Below are positions 91-49,766 of a stretch of DNA of 64,000 bases, in pieces (position 1 is the stretch's first letter; every line of letters starts with the position of its first letter). Under the pieces are notes generated by a model. It was not told where the DNA came from and ran no database searches. It saw only the letters and a list, made by a program, of their open reading frames with translations. The stretch comes from a virus. Its lineage: Duplodnaviria; Heunggongvirae; Uroviricota; Caudoviricetes. The position numbers were made by a program, and so were the translations under genes. The stretch is taken from positions 22,065 through 86,064 of the IMG/VR virus record IMGVR_UViG_3300013800_000001; one strand, 5' to 3'.

Positions 91-120
91 AATATACACT
101 ATGATTTTCCATTTGTCAAG
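91..120 (-). promoter_or_regulatory. Conserved phage promoter motif (TTGACA-N17-TATATT), reads leftward out of the window
   Basis: Reverse complement reads cTTGACAaatggaaaatcatagtgTATATT. It shares the 17-nt spacer with the other copies. Confidence 0.6.
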
Positions 121-289: not shown

Positions 290-297
290 TTAGACCT

Positions 298-1041: not shown

Positions 1042-1068
1042 ATAATTTTCGATAATATTTAAACTCTG

Positions 1069-1143: not shown

Positions 1144-1261
1144 ATATTGATTCACTGATGTGTGGCCGAGTTTTACTGACTTATACCAGTCGTGAGGTAA
1201 TTAGCCTCCTCGGTGCCCGTTAGGACTGCTTCACCCTGCCACGCATCAATGAACCATCTTG

Positions 1262-1334
1262 TGATCTGAGAAGGAATCGAACCTTCAACCTTCTGGTTAA
1301 GAGCCAGTTGCTCTGCCTATTGAGCTACCAGATC
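1262..1334 (-). tRNA. tRNA-Lys(CTT)
   Basis: Acceptor GATCTGG/TCAGATC, anticodon loop CTCTTAA, T-arm GAAGG-TTCGATT-CCTTC. Confidence 0.75.
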
Positions 1335-1340
1335 ATCTTG

Positions 1341-1427
1341 AGGAGAATGAAGGATTTGAACCTTCGTTGCTTTTACACAATACAGTTTTCAAGACTGTTG
1401 CCATCAACCAGACTCGGCCAATTCTCC
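1341..1427 (-). tRNA. tRNA-Ser(TGA), class II
   Basis: 87 nt. Perfect acceptor GGAGAAT/ATTCTCC, anticodon stem ACAGT/ACTGT with loop CTTGAAA, long variable arm. Confidence 0.75.
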
Positions 1428-1478
1428 TGGAGAATGTTCCTATTGGGTATCCCCTAATCGTCACAAACAACCGTTATG

Positions 1479-1562
1479 AGGAAGACAGACTATTCGAAAG
1501 CCATTCCTTGCGGAACCCTTCCCTTAGCACGGGAGTGCAGCGCCTTGCTGCTTTATCTTCCT
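1479..1562 (-). tRNA. tRNA-Ser(GCT), class II, weak T-stem
   Basis: 82 nt. Acceptor (A)GGAAGAT/GTCTTCC(T), D-stem GCAG/CTGC, anticodon loop GTGCTAA, variable hairpin TTCC-GCAA-GGAA, T-loop TTCGAAT on a 4-bp stem. Confidence 0.55.
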
Positions 1563-1623
1563 AAATGAGGGAGTGCTATTAAGCGTCACTCAATCGCTAA
1601 ACATGACAGTACTATCATATTTG

Positions 1624-1695
1624 TTCTAGAGGTACGGATCGAACATACTCATACAGGGTTCAAAGCCCCGTGCCTTCCCATTTGGCTACTCTAGA
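1624..1695 (-). tRNA. tRNA-Gln(TTG)
   Basis: Acceptor TCTAGAG/CTCTAGA, anticodon stem CGGGG/CCCTG with loop CTTTGAA, T-loop TTCGATC. Confidence 0.7.
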
Positions 1696-1730
1696 ATATT
1701 TACAGACTGGAGGTGGAGTACCCAGAGGCC

Positions 1731-1773
1731 GTCGCCTCGCCAGTTCGTCTCTTCCATACGTCTATGGCCGGAC
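1731..1773 (-). other. Two spacer hairpins that share a GACG tetraloop (GAGGC-GACG-GCCTC and CCATA-GACG-TATGG on the minus strand)
   Basis: Both are perfect 5-bp stems with identical 4-nt loops, in the 106-nt spacer between two tRNA-Gln genes. No cloverleaf fits. Confidence 0.4.
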
Positions 1774-1802
1774 TTATACTCCCCCTTCAATCTGCAAATT
1801 TG

Positions 1803-1873
1803 TTTCAGTCCAAGGATTCGAACCTCACTTAACAGCTTCAGAGGCTGCTGTCCTACCGCTAGACGAGACTGAA
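1803..1873 (-). tRNA. tRNA-Gln(CTG)
   Basis: Acceptor TTCAGTC/GACTGAA, anticodon loop CTCTGAA, T-loop TTCGAAT. Confidence 0.7.
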
Positions 1874-1886
1874 AAATGAACTCTGG

Positions 1887-1960
1887 GGTGATCGGAGGGG
1901 CTCGAACCCTCAACGGCTCGCTTCACAAACGAGTACTCTGCCAATTGAGCTACGAACACC
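1887..1960 (-). tRNA. tRNA-His(GTG)
   Basis: Anticodon loop TTGTGAA. Extra 5' G(-1) opposite a C73 discriminator, the His identity signature. D-arm GCTCAATTGGCAGAG. Confidence 0.75.
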
Positions 1961-2148
1961 CCAGAATTCACTTGTGGACAGTGTCGGTAACGATCCGACT
2001 CTTTCTGGTTGCAAACCAGATGTGCTGGCCTTTATCACTAACCGCCCATAAATTGAAGAGTGGCCATCTAGTCCATTCAGGAGCGACCTGAGTTATCCCT
2101 TCGCTCTGCTAGATACCATTGAGGAAGGTGTTCGGCGTCTTCAATTTG

Positions 2149-2229
2149 TGGAGATAGAGAGAATCGAACTCTCGTCCGATAGAGTGCCCTTTCGGGATTT
2201 AACTACCGTCGAAACCATTGCTTATCCCC
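2149..2229 (-). ncRNA. Atypical tRNA-like element (81 nt): acceptor and T-arm present, no canonical D/anticodon arms, contains a CCC-GAAA-GGG hairpin
   Basis: Acceptor GGGGATA/TATCTCC and T-arm GAGAG-TTCGATT-CTCTC are clear. The internal part folds as GGTTT-(11 nt)-AAATC plus a CCCGAAAGGG GNRA hairpin instead of a 7-nt anticodon loop. Confidence 0.4.
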
Positions 2230-2230
2230 G

Positions 2231-2301
2231 CATAGAAACCTGGATTTGAACCAGGACTAAAGGTTTTGGAGACCTTTGTGCTGCCGTTACACTATTTCCA
2301 C
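2231..2301 (-). tRNA. tRNA-Trp(CCA)
   Basis: Anticodon stem AAGGT/ACCTT with loop CTCCAAA, G73 discriminator, T-arm CCTGG-TTCAAAT-CCAGG. Confidence 0.75.
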
Positions 2302-2431
2302 GTATTGCTTTTGCTTCTCGAAAATCTTTAGACTAAAGAAATCTTTAGCATTCCACCTGTTCTGCCACTTCATTTTATGAGGCTTACAGAGTGCACATGA
2401 TCGCTTTTTCTTTTTTAGTCTCTTTCTCATA

Positions 2432-2611
2432 CTACTTTCTTAACTCTAACTGATTCTCATTGAATATATGTAGCAACCCGTCTTTATGCTCTGCTACTAT
2501 TCTCACATCACCCTTTGTGTTGGTAAAAATAGCTACAATAATCGAGTTGAACTTATATCCACTAACTTTCTTTGCTTTATCGCCTATCTTGAATTTTGAC
2601 TTTATCTTCAT
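2432..2611 (-). CDS. Small hypothetical protein (59 aa, MKIKSKFKIGDKAKKVSGYKFNSIIVAIFTNTKGDVRIVAEHKDGLLHIFNENQLELRK) inside the tRNA array
   Basis: Translated by hand. It is one residue under the ORF-track cutoff. It looks like a KOW/SH3-like small domain and sits in a 330-nt tRNA-free gap. Confidence 0.4.
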   Translation of the reverse strand: MKIKSKFKIGDKAKKVSGYKFNSIIVAIFTNTKGDVRIVAEHKDGLLHIFNENQLELRK

Positions 2612-2630
2612 ATATTTCTTTATTTATCTG

Positions 2631-2704
2631 TAATCCTAGTCGGATTCGAACCGACGATAACCTGTCTGAAAAACAGGGGGCTTGGGCCGCTTGCCTATAG
2701 GATC
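2631..2704 (-). tRNA. tRNA-Glu(TTC)
   Basis: Anticodon stem CCTGT/ACAGG with loop TTTTCAG, T-arm GTCGG-TTCGAAT-CCGAC. Confidence 0.7.
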
Positions 2705-2709
2705 ATCTG

Positions 2710-2792
2710 TGGGAGGAGTTGGATTCGAACCAACAATGTTTCCGTGTCACGGTTTTACAGACCGCTTGCTTCACCAATTTGCATATCCGCCC
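2710..2792 (-). tRNA. tRNA-Tyr(GTA), class II
   Basis: 83 nt. Anticodon loop CTGTAAA, long variable arm, T-arm GTTGG-TTCGAAT-CCAAC. Confidence 0.7.
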
Positions 2793-2900
2793 TTTTGGAA
2801 CCTATTGCTAGGCGGCCTTTCACCCTATTGCGTAATGGGACTTCAGTAACGGATATATACGCTAACCGTTAAACCGAAAATGGCTCTTATTAATATTCTG

Positions 2901-2972
2901 TTGGCTTAACTAGATTCGAACTAGTGACCTTAGGATTAGAAGTCCTGCGCTCTTCCGCTGAGCTATAAGCCA
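2901..2972 (-). tRNA. tRNA-Arg(TCT)
   Basis: Perfect acceptor TGGCTTA/TAAGCCA, anticodon loop CTTCTAA, D-arm GCTCAGCGGAAGAGC. Confidence 0.75.
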
Positions 2973-2973
2973 G

Positions 2974-3047
2974 TAGGTTATGAAGGAGTCGAACCTTCAC
3001 TGTATGCATTTTGAGTGCATTGCGTCTGCCAATTGCGCCAATAACCC
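2974..3047 (-). tRNA. tRNA with Leu anticodon CAA but class-I (74-nt) architecture
   Basis: Anticodon stem TGCAT/ATGCA with loop CTCAAAA. A73. No long variable arm. It abuts its neighbours on both sides, so it cannot be longer. Confidence 0.6.
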
Positions 3048-3048
3048 G

Positions 3049-3120
3049 TAGGCAATGTTGGAATCGAACCAACGACTTGAAGTATATAAGACTTCATTTC
3101 TTCCACTGAATTAATTGCCT
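3049..3120 (-). tRNA. tRNA-Ile(TAT), reads AUA
   Basis: Perfect acceptor AGGCAAT/ATTGCCT, anticodon stem GAAGT/ACTTC with loop CTTATAT. Confidence 0.7.
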
Positions 3121-3213
3121 GTACGCAAGTATTCCCCCTCTATCACGATTACCAATCGGGGTCTTTCGACCTAATCACGATAGCTTCACCCGAATAGGAG
3201 GAATACCTACATG

Positions 3214-3285
3214 TTGGTAAGGAAGGAGTTGAACCTTCGACCTTAGCCGTATCAGGACTCTGCTCTACCGTTGAGCTACTCACCA
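3214..3285 (-). tRNA. tRNA-Ile(GAT)
   Basis: Acceptor TGGTGAG/CTTACCA, D-arm GCTCAACGGTAGAGC, anticodon loop CTGATAC. Confidence 0.65.
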
Positions 3286-3455
3286 ATATGGTCATTAGAT
3301 AGGTAAGGATTTGACGAGATGTGAGGCTGTAAAACCTTCTTTAATCTATCCACAGATAGAGCATTACTCGTATAGTCACCTTACATGGATTTCCTACCAG
3401 TATCTTTATCCCAACTGGTTTCAGGCGTTACTATTCCGCCACTATCTAAATCCCG

Positions 3456-3528
3456 TAGTTCCCCTGGGATTCGAACCCAGACTTTAGACATTTTAAGTGT
3501 CTTGCCTCTGCCGTTGGGCTAGAGAACC
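3456..3528 (-). tRNA. tRNA with Leu anticodon TAA but class-I (73-nt) architecture
   Basis: Anticodon stem AGACA/TGTCT with loop CTTAAAA. A73. Short variable loop. Confidence 0.6.
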
Positions 3529-3626
3529 ATTGCAATACCTTTTAATCCTATGTGCGGGGCCTCGATAATATTTATATCCAACCATGGTAACCTCACAAAA
3601 CACATTAACGGAAAAAAAGGATTTTG

Positions 3627-3707
3627 TGCGTTAGGAGAGACTCGAACTCTCAACCCTTTCGGGCACGGTTTCTAAGACCGCTGTGTAAACCGTTCCACCA
3701 CCAACGC
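3627..3707 (-). tRNA. tRNA-Leu(TAG), class II
   Basis: 81 nt. Anticodon stem GCGGT/ACCGT with loop CTTAGAA. Variable arm is a CCC-GAAA-GGG hairpin. Confidence 0.7.
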
Positions 3708-3749
3708 ATAGACTTATCGACTTATCGGCCATCGACGTATTACCATCTG

Positions 3750-3823
3750 TACGCTCTGAGGGATTTGAACCCCCGACTTTCTGGTTCGAAGCCAGACACT
3801 CTAGTCCACTGAGTTAAGAGCGT
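3750..3823 (-). tRNA. tRNA-Arg(TCG)
   Basis: Perfect acceptor ACGCTCT/AGAGCGT, anticodon stem TCTGG/CCAGA with loop CTTCGAA. Confidence 0.75.
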
Positions 3824-3949
3824 ATGTTCCCAGGCTTTCATTGGTACCTGGAGTGAGCCTGACATTAAGGGGTATAGCCCCGCATCTGACGACGCAACGT
3901 ACAACCACAATCCCGTAGTAAGGAAATGTATTCTAGTTACTTAATTCAC

Positions 3950-4046
3950 TAGTGGGGAGGAGCGCAAAGTATTACCAGTGACGCCATTCAACAGGGTACT
4001 CTATTACGCATTTCGCCTGAAGGTTTCGTAATCCCTCCCCCCCACT
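3950..4046. other. Structured spacer element: G-run (GTGGGGAGG) pairs with a C-run (CCTCCCCCCAC) about 80 nt away, enclosing repeated CGTAAT/ATTACG motifs
   Basis: It lies in the longest (about 235 nt) tRNA-free spacer of the array. No cloverleaf fits. Confidence 0.3.
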
Positions 4047-4058
4047 AAAGAACTATTG

Positions 4059-4129
4059 AGCACGATACTGGAATCGAACCAGTATATCAGGGTTTGCAAT
4101 CCTGCACCTAGCCTTTCGGTCAACCGTGC
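4059..4129 (-). tRNA. tRNA-Cys(GCA)
   Basis: Anticodon loop TTGCAAA. U73 discriminator, the Cys identity element. Confidence 0.7.
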
Positions 4130-4151
4130 TTATTTTAAAATAACTTCTTTG

Positions 4152-4225
4152 TAGTCCGTGTAGGACTTGAACCTACAACCTTCGGTATGTAACACCGTTG
4201 CTCTAGCCAATTGAGCTAACAGACC
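4152..4225 (-). tRNA. tRNA-Val(TAC)
   Basis: D-arm GCTCAATTGGCTAGAGC, anticodon loop GTTACAT, T-arm GTAGG-TTCAAGT-CCTAC. Confidence 0.7.
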
Positions 4226-4407
4226 AAATCAGGCAGGAGGGCGGCAATCCCCATCATGACTTACAGTGGGAGGGCTGTATAAGTCCCGCAGTAGAGCCTT
4301 TCTGCATTTCAACCTGGAGCGTCGTCAGGGTAACGATCCCTGTCCTTCGGTTTGGAAAACCACTATGCGTCCATGAACACCTACAACGCTTATTTTTCTA
4401 TCTTGGG

Positions 4408-4481
4408 AGCCTCCACGAGGATTCGAACCCCGGACCTACGCATTACAAGTGCGCCGCTCTGGCCAACTGAGCTATAAAGGC
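4408..4481 (-). tRNA. tRNA-Thr(TGT)
   Basis: Anticodon stem GCGCA/TGCGT with loop CTTGTAA, D-arm GCTCAGTTGGCCAGAGC. Confidence 0.7.
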
Positions 4482-4602
4482 TTATTACTAGAAATCATGG
4501 TTATCAATATGCCGTATTAGAGTTACTGATTACCATGAGCTGTGCCTACACTGGCTGGCAAGGCACTCGGTAGGGCTTCGGAATATGATCATCTCTTCCT
4601 TG

Positions 4603-4675
4603 TTGCGATAGTGAGAATCGAACTCACGTACTCCTGCTTATGAGACAGGCCTGGGGCCACTCCAGATATATCGCT
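4603..4675 (-). tRNA. tRNA with CAT anticodon (elongator Met or Ile2-lysidine type). Position 1-72 is an A-A mismatch.
   Basis: Anticodon loop CTCATAA. It lacks the three G-C pairs of initiator tRNAs. Confidence 0.65.
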
Positions 4676-4861
4676 ATATGATGTGGGCGCCTCGACCGAG
4701 GACACACATCGACTTTATCTATCCCATAAGCTGGGCTACCAACAAAACTCCAAAACTAGTATGTGCCCACATTGGCTTCTGTTAGCTAGACAGCAGCGCT
4801 TGAAGACATGGAGTGAATGTTCGTAAACCCCACTTATGAGATAGATTTTAAAATAACTGAG

Positions 4862-4932
4862 TCAGAGTACTAGGAGTTGAACCTAGGCCGAATCCTTCCA
4901 AAGGACTCGTGCTACCGTAACACTTTACTCTG
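4862..4932 (-). tRNA. tRNA-Pro(TGG)
   Basis: Perfect acceptor CAGAGTA/TACTCTG, anticodon loop TTTGGAA. Confidence 0.75.
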
Positions 4933-5015
4933 AGAGACGGATAGTTGTTTTTTCCAAGCAAGCAGCTAGGTAGGGGCTGCGATCCGTCAATGGGGCTTAA
5001 ACGCCGATATACCTG

Positions 5016-5087
5016 TGAGTCAGCCGAGAATTGAACTCGGGCCTGCTCCTTGAGAGGGAGCCGTCTTCGCCACTTGACTACAGACTC
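5016..5087 (-). tRNA. tRNA-Glu(CTC)
   Basis: Anticodon stem GCTCC/GGAGC with loop CTCTCAA, T-arm CCGAG-TTCAATT-CTCGG. Confidence 0.7.
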
Positions 5088-5190
5088 ATTTTTGGAACCA
5101 GACGTTTATAGTCCGGCGGCTCGTCTGACTTACGTGCTATAGGATGTGCACACCCCAACACTGCCGACGATGCTCTTTGATCAATTCCTG

Positions 5191-5261
5191 CGGGACATGC
5201 GAGAATCGAACTCGCACTTACTGGTAGACAACCAGGCGCGCTGCCACTACGCCAATGTCCC
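5191..5261 (-). tRNA. tRNA-Asp(GTC)
   Basis: Perfect acceptor GGGACAT/ATGTCCC. G73. Anticodon loop TTGTCTA. Confidence 0.7.
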
Positions 5262-5289: not shown

Positions 5290-5319
5290 AGTGTACATGA
5301 TGATTTTCCATTTGTCAAG
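5290..5319 (-). promoter_or_regulatory. Conserved phage promoter (TTGACA-N17-TACACT) driving the minus-strand tRNA array
   Basis: Reverse complement is cTTGACAaatggaaaatcatcatgTACACT, about 30 nt upstream of the first tRNA. Confidence 0.65.
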
Positions 5320-5665: not shown

Positions 5666-5703
5666 AATTGAAAGTGTATAAAAGTCCTATTAATTTGTCA
5701 ATC

Positions 5704-7474: not shown

Positions 7475-8179
7475 TTATATCAACATTAATGCCTTAATTA
7501 TAGCCTCCTTAAATTCCTTCATATTCCCAGAATCAGAATAGCTCACACCAAGTCCATCGGCTATTTGCCTCAAATTGGCAATCCCCTCGGGAGTGGTCGG
7601 AGCCTTCATTATCTTTCGCCTATTCTCATCATGATCCCCAATGTACAGACAATGCGCATCTCCAAGGCTTTTAGACATCTTTCGTGTCGGGTCCTTAATG
7701 CTCATAATCCTAGGAGTCTCCGTGAGGATAGTTTTTGCAACTTTTTTGATGCCTAGCCTTTTGCAAGTCCTGCGGTAGAACTCCATGTGCTGAATCTGGT
7801 CCTCACCAACGATGACAGCATCACAGTCAGAAAGGATGATATCAGCGGCCATGAGGCAGGGGTACGTAAAGAGTCCGACGTTCCCCTCCCCCTTATCCTT
7901 GAATTGGGTCATCCTTCTGAGGTCTGACATAGGAGTCACACATTGGATTTTAAACGCTAATACCGCTGCGTCTGGATTCTGCATGTAAGCCTTGCCGCCT
8001 AACTCCTCAAGTGTTTCAAGCACATTCACGACATTAATGACCGTATTGCTACCGGTTGTCTCAGCATGGTATTGGGCTACAAGCACCCTTGATTTCTTTT
8101 CTAGAGCCAACTTTAGGCCTCCTAAGTAGTTACCTAGGTGTATGCGTCCAGTCGGTTGTATGCCGTATAAGTATTTCAT
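7475..8179 (-). CDS. trpS-like: Truncated class-I aminoacyl-tRNA synthetase, tryptophanyl-tRNA synthetase-like catalytic core without the C-terminal anticodon-binding domain
   Basis: HIGH-type motif GIQPTGRIHLGNYLG. LRRMTQFKDK and LMAADIIL...VGEDQIQHMEF line up with E. coli TrpRS. KMSKS motif present. Only 234 aa against about 330. Confidence 0.8.
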   Translation of the reverse strand: MKYLYGIQPTGRIHLGNYLGGLKLALEKKSRVLVAQYHAETTGSNTVINVVNVLETLEELGGKAYMQNPDAAVLAFKIQCVTPMSDLRRMTQFKDKGEGNVGLFTYPCLMAADIILSDCDAVIVGEDQIQHMEFYRRTCKRLGIKKVAKTILTETPRIMSIKDPTRKMSKSLGDAHCLYIGDHDENRRKIMKAPTTPEGIANLRQIADGLGVSYSDSGNMKEFKEAIIKALMLI

Positions 8180-8207
8180 ATGGGTATAGTTTCTTTATCT
8201 ATGCCTA

Positions 8208-8237
8208 ATGTTACAGGAACATTTGGTATTTGTCAAG
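8208..8237 (-). promoter_or_regulatory. Variant copy of the conserved promoter (TTGACA-N17-TAACAT) driving the trpS-like operon
   Basis: Reverse complement is cTTGACAaataccaaatgttcctgTAACAT, 30 nt upstream of the trpS-like start. Confidence 0.55.
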
Positions 8238-8239
8238 AG

Positions 8240-9140
8240 GAAAGTCCTATTTTTTGCGAAAAAAATTTTGGCTTATCTGAAGCAAATAATTCAAAAAAAT
8301 GGGGGGTTAAATTTGTAGGGGTGTATGGACTTTCAAAAAATAGAAAATCTCCGTGTTGGTACCCTTCCACCACCCTATTTTCCAGACGGGACTCAGTACC
8401 GAATCACCCCCCATACCCCTATCAGCCTCGTAGTGTCCCCACTGTCCACGCTGTGTGCCCACCCACACTGTGTGCCTCTGCCTCTCACGCCCTGCCACCG
8501 TGCTCTCTACCACTTGATTGGTGTATATAACTATTAACCATACACAAGAGTATGTACATATACAGAGATGAGGCTACAGGTCTCTATCATTGCGATCATG
8601 TGTTCGTTACCGTACGTGGGCGTTGCTACCTGGTGGGGGTAGAGTACGTGGGCGTCACAAGGATGGAGGTCATACGTCAGGTAGTAGGCAATGCATGGTT
8701 CAAGAGAATGCGTCTCAACCTTGCTTACTCTATGACAGTGGATAGGTGAGTGGCTCTGTTGAGGGATTTACCACTTGAGTGGTGTTATGATTTAGGTCGA
8801 TTTAAAATCATGACGAGTGTTTGTGTGTTAGAGAAAAGTTAGAGTCGGTTGCTCTGATAACAGAGAATATCCGACAAAATGCTTGTAATAGGTATTACAG
8901 AGTGGCTAATAAACGCCAGCTGAATCAATCAACTACTTACGAAAGCAAAGACCATATCCACAGCAAACGTGATACATCTCACGAAATATATAATATACAC
9001 TGTGTGACTCGTCTGCTAGATAAGTAAAGACTCAGAGAGCATAAGCCACTGTCAAATGCCTACTACAAGCAAATCTCGCTTTATGCGGGTTAAGCGCTTG
9101 CACCGTAACAACTGCAATATCATCAATCTAAAATAATCCT
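8240..9140. other. About 0.9-kb non-coding region with atypical C/pyrimidine-rich, strand-biased composition and short repeats
   Basis: Repeats: CACGCTGTGTGCC / CACACTGTGTGCC, GTACGTGGGCGT x2, CCACTTGA(T/G)TGGTG x2. Only short, odd-composition ORFs. It lies between divergent transcription units. Confidence 0.45.
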
Positions 9141-14594: not shown

Positions 14595-14954
14595 ATGGAA
14601 GCACAAAACATTAATCCAATAGCTGAAGCACTAAAAAAGAAAGAAGAAGAAAAACTAACAGCAAAAACAGGATTAGGAACTCAACAAATAAATCAAATAC
14701 TCTCAGCATCACAACCATTCACCCCAAACTTTGGAATGGTCAATGGAACATCAGTAAAACTAAATATTGAATTCGTAGCCAAGCAAATCAAAACCCTAAG
14801 AAACAATGCTGGAATGACACAAAGATCATTAGCAAAAATAGCTCATGTTTCACAAGGAACAATTGCTAGAGCCGAAAAAGGAAATGCAGAAGTATCATTC
14901 TACACATTCTGCAAAATAGCCACAGCATTAGGAAAGATAATTACATTAACATAA
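14595..14954 (+). CDS. XRE/Cro-type helix-turn-helix transcriptional regulator
   Basis: Segment LRNNAGMTQRSLAKIAHVSQGTIARAEKG matches the XRE HTH pattern. Confidence 0.6.
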   Translation: MEAQNINPIAEALKKKEEEKLTAKTGLGTQQINQILSASQPFTPNFGMVNGTSVKLNIEFVAKQIKTLRNNAGMTQRSLAKIAHVSQGTIARAEKGNAEVSFYTFCKIATALGKIITLT

Positions 14955-15581: not shown

Positions 15582-16880
15582 ATGCCAAAAACAACAACAA
15601 CCAAAGAAGAAGCAGCAAAAGAAGTAGAATACAATGGAATCAAAGTAGAAAAAGGTGACGGACTAAGCCAATTTATCCCAAAATCAGCAAAAAAATACAT
15701 CGACCACGGTAATATTCTAAAAACTCTAGCAATCGGTATTCGTGATGATATGGCAGTGCTACTCATCGGAGAATCAGGAACAGGAAAAACATCAGCTATT
15801 CGTCACATGGCTCAAGAAACCAACAACGGACTCCGTCGTATCAACCTCAACGGTGGCACAACAGCTGATGAACTCGTAGGACGAATGCTTATCAATGATC
15901 AAGGAACATACTGGGTTGATGGAGTACTCACAGAAGCCATGCGATCAGGAGATTGGATTGTTTTTGATGAAATTAACGCAGCACTCCCAGAAGTTCTCTT
16001 TGTGCTTCAATCAGTCATGGATGATGACGGATATCTAGTTCTCACAGAAAAAGATGATAAAGAAATTGTCCACAAACACAAAAACTTCCGCATCTTTGCT
16101 ACCTGTAACCCACCAGAATATGCCGGTACAAAGGAAATGAACAAAGCATTGCTCTCTCGCTTCGGTATCTGTATCAATGCAGAATTCCCTAAGAAAGAAG
16201 TAGAGCTAGAAATCATTGAGCATCACCTAGGAAAATCAGTAGCCGAATCAGAAATGGCTATCAAACTCGTAGATATGGCTAACGAAACACGTACTCAGAA
16301 GCAAAATGGAAAAGCTGAATACGAAATCAACACACGAGATATCTTGAACATCCTAAAGCTCGCACAAACAATGGAACCAATCCAGGCGGTACAAATGGGA
16401 TTTAGCAACAAATTAGAGCCTACAGACTCAAAAGCATTCCAAACATATGCAACTCTTCATGTACCAAGTTCAAGACAGAAAGCAAAAGCTACACGAACAG
16501 CTATGACAGACACAAATGCTTTTGAAATTGGAAAGAAATATATCTTAGATGCTGATATGCAAAAATGCTACTTTGGCCTAGAAAAGTATACAATCTCTGA
16601 ATTTGACGCCCTAAAAAAGAAAGGACTACTAGAAATTGTTACAGAAAAAGACCAAGACAACGGAATCAAAGGAGATGAGTTCAAAGTAACAGCAACATTC
16701 TACGAGAATGAAGTCCAAGCATCAGAAAAAGACCTAGATATGACACAAGCTGGACAGAAAACAGGAAGTGCAATCACCATCACAGCTGGTGCAAACAAAG
16801 GAAAGAAAGCCATCATAATCCATAACCAAGGCATTCAGGATGCAACAGAACTCCTAGCAACAATCTTCCAAATCAGCTAA
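15582..16880 (+). CDS. MoxR/CbbQ-like AAA_5 (dynein-related) ATPase
   Basis: Walker A LLIGESGTGKTS. Walker B WIVFDEINAA. The CNPPE...LLSRF arrangement is typical of the AAA_5 MoxR subfamily. Confidence 0.8.
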   Translation: MPKTTTTKEEAAKEVEYNGIKVEKGDGLSQFIPKSAKKYIDHGNILKTLAIGIRDDMAVLLIGESGTGKTSAIRHMAQETNNGLRRINLNGGTTADELVGRMLINDQGTYWVDGVLTEAMRSGDWIVFDEINAALPEVLFVLQSVMDDDGYLVLTEKDDKEIVHKHKNFRIFATCNPPEYAGTKEMNKALLSRFGICINAEFPKKEVELEIIEHHLGKSVAESEMAIKLVDMANETRTQKQNGKAEYEINTRDILNILKLAQTMEPIQAVQMGFSNKLEPTDSKAFQTYATLHVPSSRQKAKATRTAMTDTNAFEIGKKYILDADMQKCYFGLEKYTISEFDALKKKGLLEIVTEKDQDNGIKGDEFKVTATFYENEVQASEKDLDMTQAGQKTGSAITITAGANKGKKAIIIHNQGIQDATELLATIFQIS

Positions 16881-16892
16881 CAAAAACTCATT

Positions 16893-18419
16893 ATGAAACT
16901 CGTAGAATTCCAAAAAATAGCAGAGATGCTAGCAAAACAGCATAAAATCACAATTCACGAGGGAGAAAAATGGGCAGCTAACATTGAGCAAAGAAAGATA
17001 TTCTATGTAAAAAACGATATCTATAACCTGCCTGAGGATCATATCCTCGGGCTCTTGCTCCATGAGATTGCTCACATCCACTACACAACCGATGTTAAAT
17101 TACCAGAAGAAAACAAAGAATTGCTGCACACAGCCCTAAATATGATCGAAGATATCGCTATCGAACATATAATCGGAGGAGATTATCCTAATGCAGCAGA
17201 AATCCTTAATTCAACAAAAGATGAAGTATTGGACACTCTCGTAAGATTGCTCCCAAAATTAGAACGATCAGTCCATGAAAAAGCCCTTCTCTATGCCGCT
17301 GCTAGATTTGAAGGAAGAGGATACAAAAACGGAATCGAAGATTATGAAGTACTTGGAAACAAAGTAGCAGACATCATGATTCCTAAAAAAGAAGAAATCT
17401 ACAACAGAGAAGAAACAGAAAGTCTCATGCCAATTGTAGACGAAATAGCCAAACTTCTCGTAAAAGAAGCAGGAGAGCCAACAGACAAGGAAAAAGAAGA
17501 AATGATGGGAGAAGAACAGCATGGACAAGCCAATCCGAACGGAAAGGAAAGTCATCAAAAAAAAGCCTGTCACGGAAATCCTGTAAAACAAGAGATAATC
17601 GATGAATTAAAAGCAGGAAATGGCTGGATAAAAGGCATAGCACAAGAACAAAGAATAGAATTCGTCGATGAAATAGCAGAACAATCAGAAAAAATAGGCA
17701 AAGAAATCAGAAATGTCCTAAAAAGAAACAATGCTATGGAATTTGGCGGAAGATATAGAACTGGAAAGCTAAAAACAAAAAGAATCGTTAAAATAGTTGC
17801 ACAAAAAGACAGAAATCCTTTCTCAAGAAGAATTGTCAAAAGCAACCAAAGCTATGCCTTTTCAGTTGTTATCGACGTTTCGGGTTCAATGTTCAATGAC
17901 TACACCGCACCTGGTGAATACGACAAAGGAAGCTATGCCCTATCTAGTATGTATATGCTAGGAGAAGCCCTTAAAAAAGCCTCAATTCAAAGAAGTCTCA
18001 TCATATTCGGAGAAATAGCAGTCAAAATAAATGACATGAACAAAAAAGAAGTAAGATGGGAAGAAATCTGTGATCAAAAGAAACATGATCAAGCAGAATA
18101 TGGAGGAACAGACATCGCCCAAGGAATGGCTAAAGGCATACTAGAACTAGAAAAAACCAGAGCAGAAAGGAAAATACTCATAGTTCTCACAGACGGAAGT
18201 AGCCATAAACCAGACATGGAAAGAGTCCATGAAATAGGAAAAAAAGCAGGAATAGAACAACTAGGAATAACAATATCTCAAAACGACCTACCAATAGAAA
18301 TCATGAATGAAGTCTTCGGAGAAGAAAAAAACACAATCATCAAAGATGTTCAAGACACAAAACTAATTGGTAAGGCATTTATTGATATCCTTAAAAGATC
18401 TGTAAAGAAATCAGTATGA
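16893..18419 (+). CDS. von Willebrand factor A (VWA) domain protein with an N-terminal HExxH motif, partner of the MoxR-like ATPase
   Basis: MIDAS-like VIDVSGSM...TDGS. HEIAH motif near the N-terminus. Classic MoxR-VWA adjacency. Confidence 0.7.
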   Translation: MKLVEFQKIAEMLAKQHKITIHEGEKWAANIEQRKIFYVKNDIYNLPEDHILGLLLHEIAHIHYTTDVKLPEENKELLHTALNMIEDIAIEHIIGGDYPNAAEILNSTKDEVLDTLVRLLPKLERSVHEKALLYAAARFEGRGYKNGIEDYEVLGNKVADIMIPKKEEIYNREETESLMPIVDEIAKLLVKEAGEPTDKEKEEMMGEEQHGQANPNGKESHQKKACHGNPVKQEIIDELKAGNGWIKGIAQEQRIEFVDEIAEQSEKIGKEIRNVLKRNNAMEFGGRYRTGKLKTKRIVKIVAQKDRNPFSRRIVKSNQSYAFSVVIDVSGSMFNDYTAPGEYDKGSYALSSMYMLGEALKKASIQRSLIIFGEIAVKINDMNKKEVRWEEICDQKKHDQAEYGGTDIAQGMAKGILELEKTRAERKILIVLTDGSSHKPDMERVHEIGKKAGIEQLGITISQNDLPIEIMNEVFGEEKNTIIKDVQDTKLIGKAFIDILKRSVKKSV

Positions 18420-23252: not shown

Positions 23253-23282
23253 ATGTTACATGATTATTTTCTATTTGTCAAG
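23253..23282 (-). promoter_or_regulatory. Variant conserved promoter (TTGACA-N17-TAACAT) driving the minus-strand replication operon
   Basis: Reverse complement is cTTGACAaatagaaaataatcatgTAACAT, about 150 nt upstream of the initiator gene. Confidence 0.55.
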
Positions 23283-23308: not shown

Positions 23309-23605
23309 CTAATATCGGTTCATTGATGATGTCGGATTTTGAAACATATTCACAACCTCGCTCTTTAGAGACTGTAGGTTTGAAATAAACAGTTTTGGCT
23401 CTACAGAGAGCAAAGACTGGTTGTATTGGTTACGTGTATCACGCAATTCTTGAGTATCTTCGAACTTGAAATAGCCGATTGGTTTTGGCTTAATACCCTC
23501 TACTTGATAGTCTACTCCTAAGAGTGGAAAATGTAATGTCACCAGCGTGGATGCTAGATATAAATCTCTTGTTGAAAACACGGGAGCCTCGTTTTTTGGG
23601 TCCAT
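23309..23605 (-). CDS. Hypothetical protein (98 aa)
   Basis: ORF track. It lies upstream of the replication-operon promoter, so it needs its own promoter. Confidence 0.35.
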   Translation of the reverse strand: MDPKNEAPVFSTRDLYLASTLVTLHFPLLGVDYQVEGIKPKPIGYFKFEDTQELRDTRNQYNQSLLSVEPKLFISNLQSLKSEVVNMFQNPTSSMNRY

Positions 23606-23695
23606 ATAATTTCTCTTATAATATTTTTTAATGGCTATACCAAGCGGTATGCTTGTCTAAATATATATGAGTACCAGCTTTGGCGCTATTGGGGA

Positions 23696-23803: not shown

Positions 23804-24031
23804 ATGTTTCCAATTAAGATAAAGATAGAGGCCGAAAAGGTAGAAAAGGCCTTTAGAGAGCGAAAAGAAATGCTCACGGAAAAAGAAATTGAGGTTATTA
23901 CCCGTTTCTATGGTATAGACGATCGTGTACGACACACACTTGAAGAAATAGCAGCCATGTACCAGGTGACTCGTGAACGAATCCGTCAAATAAAATCGGG
24001 AGCATTGAAAAAGCTCGAAGTCAAGAAGTAA
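23804..24031 (+). CDS. Free-standing sigma-70 (RpoD) region-4 domain protein (75 aa)
   Basis: LTEKEIEVITRFYGIDDRVRHTLEEIAAMYQVTRERIRQIKSGALKKL lines up almost residue-for-residue with sigma-70 region 4.2 (RFGI...TLEEVG...VTRERIRQIEAKALRKL). Confidence 0.8.
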   Translation: MFPIKIKIEAEKVEKAFRERKEMLTEKEIEVITRFYGIDDRVRHTLEEIAAMYQVTRERIRQIKSGALKKLEVKK

Positions 24032-24057: not shown

Positions 24058-24624
24058 ATGAACGATATCAACCTCACGCCAATTTTGATGAACAAAATGA
24101 AGAGTTATCCTCGCAAAAGAGGGCGTTATAACTCATCAGAACTGTATTTCATCAATAATGGCGATGTTACACCAGAAGAATGGCTTAATCCTAAGGAAAA
24201 AAGCCCTGAAGAAGTAATGAAAATGTGGAACGGTATCGGTGTACATAACCAGCTTGAGGATTTACTCGGCAGGCGTTTTTCGGAGCGCAAAAAAGAGGTG
24301 GTATACCGTGGGATTGTGCTTGTAGGAAAGGCAGATTATGAGCCAGCGCAATATCCAGATGAAGTATGGGAATTTAAGAGCTCTACTAGAAAGATGTCAG
24401 AACCGAAAGAATGGCATAAACACCAGACAAAGCTGTACACGACAATGTTTGATAAGAAAATAGGGAGAGTGTTTCAACCAGTTAAAAATAAGGATGGAAT
24501 GTATTTGAAAAATCTCGGAACGGTCGAACGAGATGACAGATGGTTTGAAGAAGAAATGGAGAAGTTATACCAGTTTCACCTGAAAGTTGAGAAACTTTGG
24601 GAGGAGAAGTTAAAAGAAACTTAG
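24058..24624 (+). CDS. PD-(D/E)xK nuclease-fold protein (putative)
   Basis: Core motif VLVGKADY ... EVWEFK (D ... ExK). Confidence 0.45.
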   Translation: MNDINLTPILMNKMKSYPRKRGRYNSSELYFINNGDVTPEEWLNPKEKSPEEVMKMWNGIGVHNQLEDLLGRRFSERKKEVVYRGIVLVGKADYEPAQYPDEVWEFKSSTRKMSEPKEWHKHQTKLYTTMFDKKIGRVFQPVKNKDGMYLKNLGTVERDDRWFEEEMEKLYQFHLKVEKLWEEKLKET

Positions 24625-29485: not shown

Positions 29486-29515
29486 CTTGACAAATGGAAA
29501 ATCATCATGTACACT
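29486..29515 (+). promoter_or_regulatory. Conserved promoter (TTGACA-N17-TACACT) upstream of the LemA gene
   Basis: cTTGACAaatggaaaatcatcatgTACACT. Confidence 0.65.
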
Positions 29516-29546: not shown

Positions 29547-30134
29547 ATGAAAATATTAGGAATGGCTTTGGGAGGCATTTTTTCCCTTGTATTTGTAGTA
29601 ACAGCGATAGGAATACTTTGGTATATAGGAGCATATAATTCTTTGGTAAGCTCATATGAAAATGCAGATACAGCATATGCTGCTATTGAGACCCAGTATC
29701 AAAGACGTTTTGATCTAGTACCTAATCTTGCAACCGCCACTAAGGCTTTTCTACAGCAAGAAAAAGATGTGCTTGGAGAAATTGCAAGAGCTCGCACTCA
29801 ATATGCTGGTGCTAAGAGTGGTTCAGCAGACCAGATTGAGGCTATGGGAAGTTATAGCTCAGCTTTGGCCCGTCTGATGGTTATTGTAGAGAATTATCCA
29901 GAGCTTAAATCAGATCAGACTGTGCGTGACTTGATGACAGAATTAGCTGGAACTGAAAATAGAATCAATGTAGCACGAGATAGATATAATGAGGCTGTAC
30001 GTTCATACAACGTATCTATAAAGTCATTCCCTAAGAATATGATTGCTAAGAGATTAGGGTTTGAAGAGAAGCTTATGTTTGTATCAGAAAAGGGTGCTGA
30101 AAAAAGCGTTAATATCAATCTAGATACAAAATAA
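29547..30134 (+). CDS. LemA family membrane protein
   Basis: N-terminal TM helix and LemA-like core (YQRRFDLVPNL...ENYPELKSDQ...RDRYNEAV). Confidence 0.7.
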   Translation: MKILGMALGGIFSLVFVVTAIGILWYIGAYNSLVSSYENADTAYAAIETQYQRRFDLVPNLATATKAFLQQEKDVLGEIARARTQYAGAKSGSADQIEAMGSYSSALARLMVIVENYPELKSDQTVRDLMTELAGTENRINVARDRYNEAVRSYNVSIKSFPKNMIAKRLGFEEKLMFVSEKGAEKSVNINLDTK

Positions 30135-30135
30135 T

Positions 30136-30687
30136 ATGAATACCAGAATAACAATAATATCTATTCTGTGTGTCTCTATAATATTTCTTATTATAGCTTC
30201 AGTTGGTAACTCAACCCCAACTGTACCAGAGCACATGAAAATGGATGATAGACCAAAGTCTACAGATATCCTAGGGCAGAATATTCCAGACGTGGTTGGA
30301 TATGTGAATGATGAAGCAAAACTTATAGATGAAATCCAAGAAGTACAAATAAAGCATAAAATACAGGTGTTTTCAGAAGAATCAAGCAAAGGAGAAATGG
30401 CTGTAGTTACCGTTAATTCACTGAATGGTCTCTCGGTCGAAGAGTTTGCCATCAGGCTTGCAGAGAAGTGGCAAGTTGGGAAAGAAGGTAAAGACGATGG
30501 CATTATCATTATCATAGCCAAAGCAGAACGAAAGGTTCGCATTGAAGTTGGAAGAGGAACAAATATAACTGATGCTCAAGCAAAAGGGGTTCTTGATGAT
30601 GTAATGATACCGAAGCTTAAAGAAGGAGATTGGGCTGGAGCAGTAGACTCTGGTGTAGACGCACTAATTAATCTAGCTAGTGAATAA
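30136..30687 (+). CDS. TPM (TLP18.3/Psb32/MOLO-1) domain protein with an N-terminal TM segment
   Basis: TPM-like core (EMAVVTVNSLNG...IIIIIAKAERKVRIEVGRG...AQAKGVLDD). LemA-TPM adjacency is a known bacterial gene pair. Confidence 0.65.
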   Translation: MNTRITIISILCVSIIFLIIASVGNSTPTVPEHMKMDDRPKSTDILGQNIPDVVGYVNDEAKLIDEIQEVQIKHKIQVFSEESSKGEMAVVTVNSLNGLSVEEFAIRLAEKWQVGKEGKDDGIIIIIAKAERKVRIEVGRGTNITDAQAKGVLDDVMIPKLKEGDWAGAVDSGVDALINLASE

Positions 30688-31126
30688 ATATATGGAATAT
30701 AAATTTGGAGAAATATATACAGATAAGCCGATGGTAGATGATACTGTCCAGCTACAAAAAGGCCTTCCGCTTCCAGTGGTTCTTTGTGAAGAAACAGGAG
30801 TGAGAATGCTGAACATTGATGCAGATGAAATCCAAAGAGGAGATCTTCAATTCATAAAAAGCCTTGGTTTGACTATCTCTAACCCAGATACAGACAGGCC
30901 AATTGCACTCGGAGTTGATTTTCTAGAAGACTCATGGGGTGAGCGTATCAACGATTATTTGAACAACGAAGATGATGATGACGATAGTGACTTCTTCGGT
31001 GGAGATGACGATGATGATGACGATAGCTTCCTTGGCGGTTTCGGAAGTGGAGGCTTCAGTGGTGACTCATTTGGCGGATTTGGTGGCGGGTTATTCAGTG
31101 GAGGTGGCGCTAGCGGGGATTTCTAG
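30680..31126 (+). CDS. Asp/Gly-rich low-complexity protein (148 aa)
   Basis: ORF track. C-terminal DDDDDDSFLGGFGSGGFSG...GGGASGDF resembles the tails of YgcG/TPM partners. Confidence 0.4.
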   Translation: MNKYMEYKFGEIYTDKPMVDDTVQLQKGLPLPVVLCEETGVRMLNIDADEIQRGDLQFIKSLGLTISNPDTDRPIALGVDFLEDSWGERINDYLNNEDDDDDSDFFGGDDDDDDDSFLGGFGSGGFSGDSFGGFGGGLFSGGGASGDF

Positions 31127-31127
31127 T

Positions 31128-31337
31128 ATGTCGAAGAATATAAAAGACTTGTATGAACACAGTAGACTTGATTTCGTTTCTGAGGATGCACAACATAGAG
31201 TTTGCTGGAATCAGAAAGAAAAGAAATGCTGTGATTGTAAACCTCATGACAATTGCCTTCTTCCAGAAGAGGATGCAGAATCACGTAGTTTTTTAGAATG
31301 GCTTGAAATAGAGAGATTGAGAAAAGATAATAAATAA
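31128..31337 (+). CDS. Small Cys-rich protein (70 aa). It is the distal in-frame part of track ORF 30972-31337.
   Basis: ATG at 31128 avoids overlap with the previous gene. CCDCKPHDNC cluster. Confidence 0.3.
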   Translation: MSKNIKDLYEHSRLDFVSEDAQHRVCWNQKEKKCCDCKPHDNCLLPEEDAESRSFLEWLEIERLRKDNK

Positions 31338-31349
31338 TATGAAAATCAT

Positions 31350-32666
31350 ATGTTAACATTACCAATTATTTTAGCAATATGCGGTGGAGGAATAGTAGTC
31401 CTCATCTGGGCTTTCCTAGCCACATATAAAGTTGTCGGTACAAACGAGGCTCACGTTATAGTGTTTATGGGTCGTGGACGTAAGATTAAGTCGCCTGTAG
31501 CCAATGATGGTGTAGAGGGGAAGACTTCTTACTTCTACATTCCATTCTTGATGAAACGGTATATCATGCCTCTCACCAACGTGAAGCTTGATATCAACGA
31601 AATTCATCTAAATGATGTAGAAATGGCACCATTTAAGTGTGATGTAGTGACCTGGCTTCACATCGAAGACCCTGTCAAGGCAGCAGAACGTCTTGATTTT
31701 AGCGAAGAAAACGTATTTATTTCACTTCATCAAGATTTGTCAGCCATTGTTCAGGCCATTGCTCGTGCGTCAGCCATGAAACAAGAAATCCTTGATATCA
31801 TGCGTGATCGTGCCACTTTTGCTCAAGGTGTAAGTATAGAAGTAGATGGCGTTCTAAAGTCATGGGGAGTGCAGCTCGTAAACCTCGAAATTAACGAAAT
31901 TCGGGACCAAGACGACTCTCAGATCATAAAAGGGTACGAAAGTATTCGTAAAGCGACTATTGCGTCTAAAGCCCGTATTGAAGTTGCTACGCGTAATCGT
32001 GAAGCGATTCAAGCTGAACAGGAAAACCTGCAGTTGGCTGAGATTTCAAAGGCAGAAGCTGAAAAGGCTTTTATTACAAGCCAAATTCTTCGAGATAAGT
32101 CTATTGGTATCAGTACTCAGGAGAAAGATCAAGATATTGCTGTTGCTGAAGCTATCACAAATGCCAAGAAAGTGGCTGCTTTGAAGGTGACGACAGTTGG
32201 AGAAGCTAATGTTACCAAGGAGGCTGCTATTGTTGAGGCTGAAGGACGTGGAGAAGCAATCCGTATTCAGGGAGAAAAAGAGGCTAATGTTGTTGCCCTG
32301 AAGGGTAAGGCCGAAGCTGATGTTGTCTCTCTTACTGGTAAAGCCGAGGGAGAAGCAATTGAAGCTAAGGGTCTTGCTGAAGCTCTTGCAAAAGATAAGA
32401 TGGCAGATGCTCTTGTTAAATTCAATGAGGCAGCCACTGGTATTGAAAAGATCAAAGCATGGGTTGAAGTGCAGAAGTCATTTGCTGAAGCATACGGCCA
32501 GATGGCTAAAAATGCTGATATCAAGGTTGTTACTAGCGGTGAAGGCGGAAATATCCTCGGATTACCGATGAACGCTCAAACTGGAGGTGACTTAGGCCAA
32601 ATGATTGAGGCAATGGGTGGGTTTGGAAAGATTAAAGACATGTTCACAGGAACAAAGTCTGAATAA
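31350..32666 (+). CDS. SPFH/band-7 flotillin-like protein
   Basis: N-terminal TM helix, band-7 domain, then a long Ala/Glu/Lys-rich coiled coil with AEA/EAK repeats typical of flotillins. Confidence 0.75.
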   Translation: MLTLPIILAICGGGIVVLIWAFLATYKVVGTNEAHVIVFMGRGRKIKSPVANDGVEGKTSYFYIPFLMKRYIMPLTNVKLDINEIHLNDVEMAPFKCDVVTWLHIEDPVKAAERLDFSEENVFISLHQDLSAIVQAIARASAMKQEILDIMRDRATFAQGVSIEVDGVLKSWGVQLVNLEINEIRDQDDSQIIKGYESIRKATIASKARIEVATRNREAIQAEQENLQLAEISKAEAEKAFITSQILRDKSIGISTQEKDQDIAVAEAITNAKKVAALKVTTVGEANVTKEAAIVEAEGRGEAIRIQGEKEANVVALKGKAEADVVSLTGKAEGEAIEAKGLAEALAKDKMADALVKFNEAATGIEKIKAWVEVQKSFAEAYGQMAKNADIKVVTSGEGGNILGLPMNAQTGGDLGQMIEAMGGFGKIKDMFTGTKSE

Positions 32667-35064: not shown

Positions 35065-35736
35065 ATGTACCCACTGAATAAATGGCTTTTATACCCTAGA
35101 GGATATAGATTCGGACAACCGACTTTTTATAGTGACTTTCACCTTGGTTTGGATGTAGTATGTCCGTCTGGAACTGAAATTATTGCATGGGATGACTTAG
35201 TGGTTTCTAATGCTCTGGTTGGTGCACAAGGAGGAAATACTATATGGGTGAAATCAGATGGAAAGCTGTTTCGTCTGATGCATCTTTCAAAACCTGGTAA
35301 AACAGGAACATATAAAAAAGGACAGGTCATAGGATATACTGGTAACACTGGTGCAAGCACAGCTCCGCATTTGCACATAGATATATCTAAGAATGGCAAT
35401 CTAGAGCTTAATAATCACGCTAATTTCATAGACCCAGAGGAATACTTTAAACAACTCAATGACAATAATATGGAACTCACAAAAGATCAGAAGAATGAAT
35501 TAGCAAAGTTAGGCTTTGACTTTGGAAACAATCTTAACTCATCAGAGCTTGATAAGCTGATTAAGAAAGCTGTTGATCTTCAAGAAGAGCCTGATCCAGT
35601 TTGTCCACCTGCCGAAAACTGTGATATATACAAGCAGCAGATAATTGAGAAAGATGCCGAAATAGCTGGATTGAGACCAAAGGCAGACGTAGGGAATCGT
35701 TTTATCGAAGTATCTAAAATGGCAAATAGCCTTTAG
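35065..35736 (+). CDS. Peptidase M23 (LytM-type) family protein
   Basis: HLGLDV ... GNTG...APHLHID motifs. Confidence 0.75.
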   Translation: MYPLNKWLLYPRGYRFGQPTFYSDFHLGLDVVCPSGTEIIAWDDLVVSNALVGAQGGNTIWVKSDGKLFRLMHLSKPGKTGTYKKGQVIGYTGNTGASTAPHLHIDISKNGNLELNNHANFIDPEEYFKQLNDNNMELTKDQKNELAKLGFDFGNNLNSSELDKLIKKAVDLQEEPDPVCPPAENCDIYKQQIIEKDAEIAGLRPKADVGNRFIEVSKMANSL

Positions 35737-36054: not shown

Positions 36055-36084
36055 CTTGACAAATGGAAAACTAGGGTGTACACT
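36055..36084 (+). promoter_or_regulatory. Conserved promoter (TTGACA-N17-TACACT)
   Basis: cTTGACAaatggaaaactagggtgTACACT. Confidence 0.6.
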
Positions 36085-42718: not shown

Positions 42719-42748
42719 CTTGACAAATGGAAAATCATCGTGTACACT
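42719..42748 (+). promoter_or_regulatory. Conserved promoter (TTGACA-N17-TACACT)
   Basis: cTTGACAaatggaaaatcatcgtgTACACT. Confidence 0.65.
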
Positions 42749-49736: not shown

Positions 49737-49766
49737 CTTGACAAAAGCCAACTTAAAAAATACACT
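49737..49766 (+). promoter_or_regulatory. Conserved promoter with a degenerate spacer (TTGACA-N17-TACACT)
   Basis: cTTGACAaaagccaacttaaaaaaTACACT, about 10 nt upstream of the deformylase gene. Confidence 0.55.

Follow-up and report, generated by a model that had tools for sequence, protein, structure and literature searches.

A free-standing sigma-70 region 4 protein in uncultivated phages and its possible role in masking -35 boxes

The open reading frame at positions 23804..24031 on the plus strand, hereafter called the sigma4 gene, starts with ATG and encodes a protein of 75 amino acids (MFPIKIKIEAEKVEKAFRERKEMLTEKEIEVITRFYGIDDRVRHTLEEIAAMYQVTRERIRQIKSGALKKLEVKK) which is a complete sigma-70 region 4, comprising regions 4.1 and 4.2 (helices H1–H4) without regions 1–3 and without helix H5. 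It lies in a window of 64,000 nucleotides from the IMG/VR virus record IMGVR_UViG_3300013800_000001, the window being the whole stretch of DNA that was analysed. By sequence profile, by fold and by its -35-contact residues alike the protein is a sigma region 4; it is not itself a sigma factor, because region 2 and H5 are absent. Its family was found only in uncultivated phages and is uncharacterised and new, the theme of small phage regulators built on the helix-turn-helix of sigma region 4 being known. As a tentative proposal, held with somewhat less than even confidence, we suggest that the protein is a trans-acting -35-box binder which masks TTGACA promoters; the binding, its targets and the sign of the regulation are what we infer.

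The Pfam model Sigma70_r4 (PF04545) matched the 75-aa protein with 44.2 bits (E = 1.3e-11), above the curated cut-off of 24.1. The NCBIfam RpoD model matched with E = 3.3e-14, the protein aligning to positions 556–617 of 631, and in both the RpoD and the RpoS models it was the last ~60 positions that aligned (E = 3e-14). The top PHROG was 'RNA polymerase sigma factor' (E = 5e-12), with the C-terminal part of the profile only, and there was a weak match to the PHROG 'late transcriptional activator' (E = 0.042). A search of 177,635 PDB sequences with the family profile returned sigma region 4 chains only (best E = 3.6e-17). The free-standing, phage-encoded sigma-70 region 4 described in the initial annotation is thus upheld by Pfam, the RpoD model, the PDB profile search and the fold, which all agree. 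The match is not confined to region 4.2, as had been stated there, since 4.1 and 4.2 are both covered, and the likeness to RpoD region 4.2 'almost residue for residue' applies to the recognition helix VTRERIRQI, which is the sole stretch identical to RpoD, whereas overall identity to RpoD region 4 is only ~45–58 % among the matches listed. Free-standing bacterial proteins of ~75–110 amino acids with a sigma region 4-like or LuxR-type HTH, such as YlxM/p13 (UPF0122) and GerE-type proteins, are similar in build but have not retained the residues by which sigma-70 recognises the -35 element; UPF0122 (PF04297) scored 18.7 bits against the 75-aa protein, under its cut-off of 22.7, and the search with GerE gave no match.

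An AlphaFold model computed from the 55-sequence family alignment had a pLDDT of 88.7 and four helices (residues 4–23, 26–36, 46–53 and 57–70). The best Foldseek matches of the model were Thermus sigmaA region 4 structures, alone or on -35 DNA without core. The matches 1ku3, 1ku7, 1rio and 3n97 had a probability of 1.00 and a target TM-score of up to 0.86, with an rmsd of 1.4–1.6 Å over ~50 residues for 1ku3 and 3n97 and of 3.3–4.0 Å for the top 1rio and 1ku7 alignments. As these matches include region 4 crystallised on -35 DNA without core, such a domain is known to be capable of binding -35 DNA in isolation.

The residues of E. coli sigma-70 which we take to contact the -35 element are R584, E585, R586, R588 and Q589, and their counterparts in the window protein are R57, E58, R59, R61 and Q62. 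Across the 55 family members compared, the recognition helix reads T or S, then R (54/55), E (55/55), R (55/55), I or V, R (55/55) and Q (55/55). The conservation of the contact residues in 54–55 of 55 members, at an overall identity of 35–65 %, argues for DNA reading as the selected function of the family. The median net charge of the family is +7, compared with +1 for the equivalent span of full sigmas, that of the window protein is +5, and Lys occupies the position of E. coli E591 in 54 of the 55 members. By our own residue mapping, the window protein presumably has G in place of E. coli K593 and E in place of R599. The domain thus shares with region 4 of primary sigmas (PDB 1KU7, 1RIO, 3N97) the Pfam domain, the four-helix HTH fold, the motif TRERIRQI and the five -35-contact residues; unlike it, the 75-aa protein is a separate phage gene product without regions 1–3, the 3.2 linker and H5, and the phage family is more basic, has Lys at E591 and carries an N-terminal motif of its own.

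The tail which follows RQI has a median length of 13 residues in the family and of 22.5 in full-length sigmas; the window protein ends 12 residues past RQI. Such a short tail means that helix H5 is missing. Region 4 of sigma-70 consists of residues 540–613 with helices H1–H5 (PMC2988021, Figure 3), and H5 is embedded in the beta-flap, H1 and H2 also contributing to the flap contact (PMC2988021). Canonical engagement of the beta-flap therefore appears weakened, because H5, one of the three flap-contacting elements of sigma, is missing in the family.

An exhaustive phmmer search of 1.84 billion representatives with the 75-aa protein gave 7,184 matches, and many proteins of 66–110 amino acids were among the best. 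Three metagenomic proteins with 6–9 tandem, degenerate sigma-region-4-like repeats, P0004 (589 aa), P0005 (647 aa) and P0013 (1692 aa), also ranked among the top matches. In a profile search the family comprised at least 55 clusters of 70–102 amino acids, scoring from 112 down to ~91 bits with one outlier at 80, while RpoD fragments reached at most 87 bits. Its members share an N-terminal helix xAExVxxAY in which one Ala (A10) never varies, RYYG in place of the RFG of RpoD, the helix TRER(I/V)RQIK and a C-terminal end ~13 residues past RQI. They are located in IMG/VR viral contigs and in metagenome contigs of up to 100 kb, and their source annotation is automatic only ('sigma factor'). In a contig search with the family, the matches listed were all cellular RpoD, from many phyla and at no more than 58 % identity.

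In 50,697 GenBank phage records, tblastn found no family member; it found region 4 of full-length sigmas only, for example in SSIP-1 ORF2 (340 aa) and in Vibrio phage VAP7 (415 aa). Megablast of 12 kb against the same records gave no cultivated relative, and the primase-helicase shares no more than 30 % identity with those of known phages. A characterised phage protein of exactly this kind was found neither in the literature nor in those records. The earlier statement that no such phage protein had been described holds in this narrow sense and has to be qualified, as small late activators resembling sigma region 4 are known from the LtrA family (PMC3753634); LtrA is unrelated to the present family at the profile level, with an hhalign probability of 0.6 %.

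The sigma4 gene was found to be a gene in its own right. An in-frame stop codon lies 4 codons 5' of the ATG, and the 198 bp 5' of the gene are promoter DNA, beyond which a conserved gene is encoded on the opposite strand. The window was searched by phmmer with 54 full-length sigmas and with an HMM built from those 54, and among its 590 stop-to-stop ORFs none besides sigma4 matched (next best E = 0.11). An ORF similar to region 2 or 3 was found neither in the 64-kb window nor in the 4.8 kb beyond it, in a genome of ~99 kb, nor in 14 related loci, 10 kb to either side. The additional 4.8 kb were reached via the edge proteins and contain structural genes throughout. Among the 40 other window proteins compared with PHROG and Pfam, no sigma-like, gp55-like, anti-sigma or RNA polymerase genes were detected. 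That regions 1–3 are missing, as read in the initial annotation, is therefore confirmed by the stop codon, the promoter DNA, the divergent gene and the lack of any other sigma-matching ORF in the window; regions 2–3, whose recovery upstream had been named there as a ground for refutation, were present neither among the 590 ORFs nor at the 14 related loci. A disrupted full-length sigma gene, considered as a candidate, was ruled out, the sigma4 ORF alone having matched in the window and in the 14 loci.

An orthologue is present in five other contigs (L003–L007), likewise 75 amino acids long and 91 % identical to the window protein. In the codon comparison of the window gene with its 91 % identical L003 orthologue, dN/dS was 0.044, with 29.5 synonymous and 10.5 non-synonymous differences and a dS of ~1.4, at which synonymous sites are saturated. 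On these substitution counts the sigma4 gene is shown to be under purifying selection.

The window is phage DNA. Replication genes (PrimPol-DnaB, DnaC-like and DnaD-like) are encoded on its minus strand, and the plus strand carries a long DNA-metabolism block with Cas4-like nuclease, ParB-like, AAA, SNF2, UvsX-like, RuvC-like and SbcC-like genes. Tail and lysis-type genes occupy the right end of the window, and an SU10-type adaptor is encoded immediately outside it. The rightward DNA-metabolism block is led by the sigma4 gene, which in every relative is the first gene behind strong promoters. The Cas4-like PD-(D/E)XK nuclease gene (24058..24624, plus strand, 188 aa; PHROG 1706, E = 1.1e-9) starts 26 nt past the sigma4 stop codon, with no terminator found between them by a terminator scan, and it lies downstream of sigma4 in 10 of the 10 loci compared, either adjacent to it or separated from it by one to three small inserts. 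On the left side of the module, 9 of the 10 loci have a divergent gene for a DUF5659-like protein of 98 amino acids (23309..23605 in the window, minus strand; Pfam DUF5659, E = 6e-5, 23.3 bits, just under the cut-off of 23.6). The only other recognisable transcription factor in the window is an XRE-type HTH protein (14595–14954).

Further features of the window were recorded. Together, 26 tRNA genes for most of the amino acids form an array at 134–5261 (minus strand), which is driven by a promoter copy at 5290–5318. Within the array, 2146–2229 (minus strand, 84 nt) matched the Rfam tmRNA model with 60.1 bits (gathering score 47); the match covers only the two ends of the 374-position model and was not called by ARAGORN, and the element could be tRNA-like or mini-tmRNA-like. 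Adjoining the array is a gene for a 234-aa protein with a class Ib aminoacyl-tRNA-synthetase domain (tRNA-synt_1b; 7475–8179, minus strand). A 372-bp intergenic region between divergent blocks (8180–8551) is unusually rich in G+C and in C (…CCCCATACCCCTATCAGCC…CACACTGTGTGCC…). A second motif, ACCACTTGAnTGGTGT, was found twice in the window (8509 and 8770), no more often than expected by chance. Genes for a MoxR-type AAA ATPase and a VWA protein form a pair at 15582–18419 (plus strand), within a block of low GC and high AT skew at 10–19 kb. The DNA-metabolism block also includes genes for an M23-type metallo-endopeptidase (35065–35736, plus strand) and for a protein with a peptide-deformylase-like domain (49775–50479, plus strand; PHROG 2890, E = 9e-13).

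The sigma4 gene is preceded by two promoters, P1 (23697..23725, plus strand; TTGACA, 17-bp spacer, TACACT) and, 47 bp downstream of it, P2 (23744..23772, plus strand; TTGACA, 17-bp spacer, TACGAT). Both are copies of a phage-wide promoter of 30 bp, CTTGACAAATGGAAAATCATCATGTACACT, of which the window contains about 11 copies. The transcript start inferred for P2 is ~25 nt before the sigma4 ATG, and no Shine-Dalgarno sequence is present. Both promoters are nearly invariant in the five orthologous contigs (L003–L007), despite the saturation of synonymous sites in the gene. The two tandem consensus promoters reported earlier are thus supported in their perfect TTGACA boxes, their 17-bp spacers and their conservation in five contigs, but not in their -10 hexamers, each of which agrees with the consensus at only 4 of 6 positions. 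Since the DNA directly 5' of P1 in L006 (1–105) and L007 (68–170) is unrelated to window 23590–23695 while P1, P2 and the gene are kept, the promoter-sigma4 module behaves as a mosaic unit.

The first 16 nt of the phage-wide promoter, CTTGACAAATRGAAAA, occur exactly 8 times in the window; with up to 3 mismatches there are 10 matches against 3.25 expected, a number reached in 0 of 100 shuffles. Promoter sites precede the tRNA array, the replication genes and several plus-strand units. On the minus strand they are found at 23253..23281 (TTGACA, 17 bp, TAACAT), driving the leftward DnaD-like, DnaC-like and PrimPol-DnaB genes, at 5290..5318 (a copy of the 30-bp promoter, heading the 26-tRNA array) and at 91..119 (the same type, with the -10 hexamer TATATT), with looser copies at 8208..8236 (CTTGACAAATACC...TAACAT) and 5673..5701 (TTGACAAATTA...TACACT). 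On the plus strand the 30-bp promoter recurs at 29487..29515, upstream of the LemA/TPM/Band7 genes, promoters of the same type lie at 36056..36084 and 42720..42748, and a looser copy is at 49738..49766 (CTTGACAAAAG...TACACT). A perfect CTTGACAAA is present in every one of the ~11 conserved promoters of the window, P1 and P2 included. In four diverged relatives the promoters are of the cTTGACAAA-N14-TA(A/G)GAT type, and in the window and these relatives together all promoter copies have a perfect TTGACA, usually as cTTGACAAA, and an imperfect -10 box. The pairing of a perfect -35 hexamer and an imperfect -10 hexamer is thus a property of the clade. Tandem promoters are not family-wide, other members having a single promoter and some of them a long leader. 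In L009 (536–775) and L012 (7705–8008) the sigma4 gene is found 220–270 nt downstream of a single promoter, with the conserved blocks TATTTAACCAGnAGCCACGTAGCGTGGCA … ATGAAGGCCGG in the leader, which may be a cis-regulatory RNA; a search of the long leaders of related loci against Rfam gave no match.

Among the three mechanisms named in the initial annotation, a decoy at -35 boxes, an anti-sigma and a sigma appropriator, DNA binding at TTGACA is favoured because of the invariant contact residues (n = 55), the charge of +7 compared with +1, and the perfect TTGACA of the phage promoters. In the mechanism that we propose, the host sigmaA-RNA polymerase would transcribe the sigma4 gene from the two tandem TTGACA-N17-TAnnnT promoters, yielding a stand-alone -35-reading domain without regions 1.2 to 3.2 and H5, the parts that tie sigma to core. 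The protein would bind TTGACA-type hexamers by itself, and as all ~11 window promoters have a perfect CTTGACAAA, its occupancy would compete with the holoenzyme for the -35 element, its own two promoters being among the targets. The predicted outcome is a dose-dependent repression of -35-dependent promoters, by which early and middle phage transcription would limit itself, host -35-dependent promoters would probably be damped, and transcription would move to promoters with no need of a -35 box.

Several points weigh against masking. Only ~6 bp are read by a region 4 monomer, and its binding is weak, so that very high levels or extra contacts would be needed to compete effectively with the holoenzyme. 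Selection for strong host-sigmaA promoters explains the perfect TTGACA equally well, and the recognition residues and the hexamer are both invariant, so no covariation links the protein to the site. The retention of H1 and H2 and the N-terminal helix with the invariant A10 leave room for some contact with RNA polymerase.

It is unlikely, although conceivable, that the protein is a conventional activator of the LtrA/RinA kind, which would recruit RNA polymerase to otherwise weak (late) promoters from a TTGACA-like operator close by. The LtrA/RinA/ArpU superfamily consists of small phage late activators with a sigma region 4-like DNA-binding part (PMC3753634), and like them the 75-aa protein is a free-standing, presumably regulatory phage protein resembling sigma region 4. 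Small proteins of this sort have been proven to activate late operons (PMC3753634), the weak 'late transcriptional activator' PHROG match (E = 0.042) points the same way, and besides this protein just one further transcription factor could be recognised in the window. It is however not homologous to LtrA of phage 37 (YP_240149; 134 aa), whose match to Sigma70_r4 (E = 0.0047) falls short of the cut-off and whose recognition helix differs; the LtrA/RinA/ArpU genes lie beside terS, whereas the sigma4 gene heads the early DNA-metabolism operon; and a promoter class with a displaced TTGACA box was not seen in the window. Membership of the LtrA group was rejected on the hhalign comparison of the sigma4 family with LtrA (probability 0.6 %, E = 0.093) and on the position of the gene away from terS.

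A module bound to RNA polymerase on the beta-flap, where it would take the place of a sigma's own region 4, either as the -35-reading half of a split sigma with a phage-encoded region 2-like partner or as an appropriator that re-equips the host holoenzyme, is rather improbable. Split systems exist, for example T4 gp55 with gp33, and form a precedent; T4 gp33/gp55 and Bacillus sigmaO-RsoA resemble such an arrangement in having region 4-type and region 2-type functions on separate polypeptides. T4 gp33, to our knowledge, lacks both homology to region 4 and the ability to bind DNA. The phage protein retains H1 and H2, two helices that take part in the flap contact of sigma-70 (PMC2988021), its N-terminal helix has the conserved AExVxxAY with the invariant A10, and the ~31 kb of the ~99-kb genome outside view could house a region 2-like partner, as could the DNA searched if the partner were very divergent. 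Set against this, H5, which is embedded in the flap hook, is missing across the family. In contrast to the split sigmas, no region 2-like partner (and no region 2/3-like ORF) was seen in the window, in the 4.8 kb beyond it or within 10 kb to either side at the 14 related loci, and no sigma-like, gp55-like or anti-sigma PHROG was matched by the 40 other window proteins. A flap-bound copy with the -35 specificity of the host would moreover change nothing unless a partner without region 4 exists.

Equally doubtful is a role as a protein decoy, in which the free domain 4 would titrate a binder of host region 4 (an Rsd- or AsiA-like anti-sigma, an activator or a defence sensor) and so protect or redirect transcription. 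High expression from two promoters would suit a stoichiometric decoy, but the five invariant DNA-contact residues and the raised charge are what DNA binding predicts and are no requirement for a decoy, and the basic activator-contact patch is partly lost, if K593 and R599 have, as we assume, been replaced by G and E. Evidence that a free region 4 can be a sink in vivo comes from E. coli, in which, as far as the report is cited, a co-expressed C-terminal fragment of sigma-70 neutralised the toxicity of AsiA (Sharma et al. 1999, cited in PMC2988021). T4 AsiA, which binds and remodels host region 4, has no sequence or fold relation to the 75-aa protein, and the analogy between them is functional only: both are small early phage proteins, and a selective loss of -35-dependent transcription early in infection would be expected for both (PMC2988021), but the 75-aa protein, being a region 4 in its own right, would have DNA or the ligands of region 4 as its target.

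That the gene is a non-functional remnant of a captured host rpoD gene, a reading suggested by a sequence covering only region 4 of a primary-type sigma with 45–58 % identity to many RpoD among the matches listed, is effectively refuted by the selection and family data, namely a dN/dS of 0.044, at least 55 clusters of uniformly 70–102 amino acids with RYYG, the N-terminal AExV helix, K after RQI and no H5, synteny kept in 10 of 10 loci, and a dedicated promoter.

Some features of the phage bear on its host. None of 70 ORFs (of at least 100 aa) has GGAG, GAGG or AGGA at -20 to -4, the positions searched for a Shine-Dalgarno sequence. Gene leaders are A/T-rich (…ataaaaatATG) beside classical TTGACA-N17-TAnnnT promoters, an unusual pairing; the lack of Shine-Dalgarno sequences together with classical promoters may be informative on the host. 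A cluster of genes for LemA, TPM-domain and SPFH/Band7 membrane proteins is located at 29547–32666 (plus strand), behind a phage promoter copy of its own, and LemA is kept in related phage contigs too. The nearest named cellular homologues of LemA are from a 'Bacilli' MAG (57 %), Candidatus Shapirobacteria (54 %) and Candidatus Gracilibacteria (51 %), and they hint weakly at a CPR/Patescibacteria host.

Three routes are known by which phages redirect the RNA polymerase of their host: anti-sigmas, sigmas of their own and flap-binding proteins. A detached -35-reading domain of a primary sigma, maintained by strong selection across a phage clade, would add a fourth and very simple strategy, in which a copied reading head competes for the DNA or for the binders of that head. 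If -35-box masking by the 75-aa protein is true, it would parallel AsiA-type shut-off at the level of DNA and would imply a new timing of early phage genes and a silencing of host promoters. A further use of the domain could be as a portable, orthogonal repressor at -35-dependent promoters. The uncultivated phage lineage marked by the family is unusual in having no Shine-Dalgarno sequences, 26 tRNAs and one 30-bp promoter reused across the genome. It is possible, if at present more doubtful than assured, that the family as a whole is a widespread one of phage 'promoter-masking' proteins, made at a high level early in infection and competing with the host holoenzyme on TTGACA, in a clade that may infect CPR/Patescibacteria.
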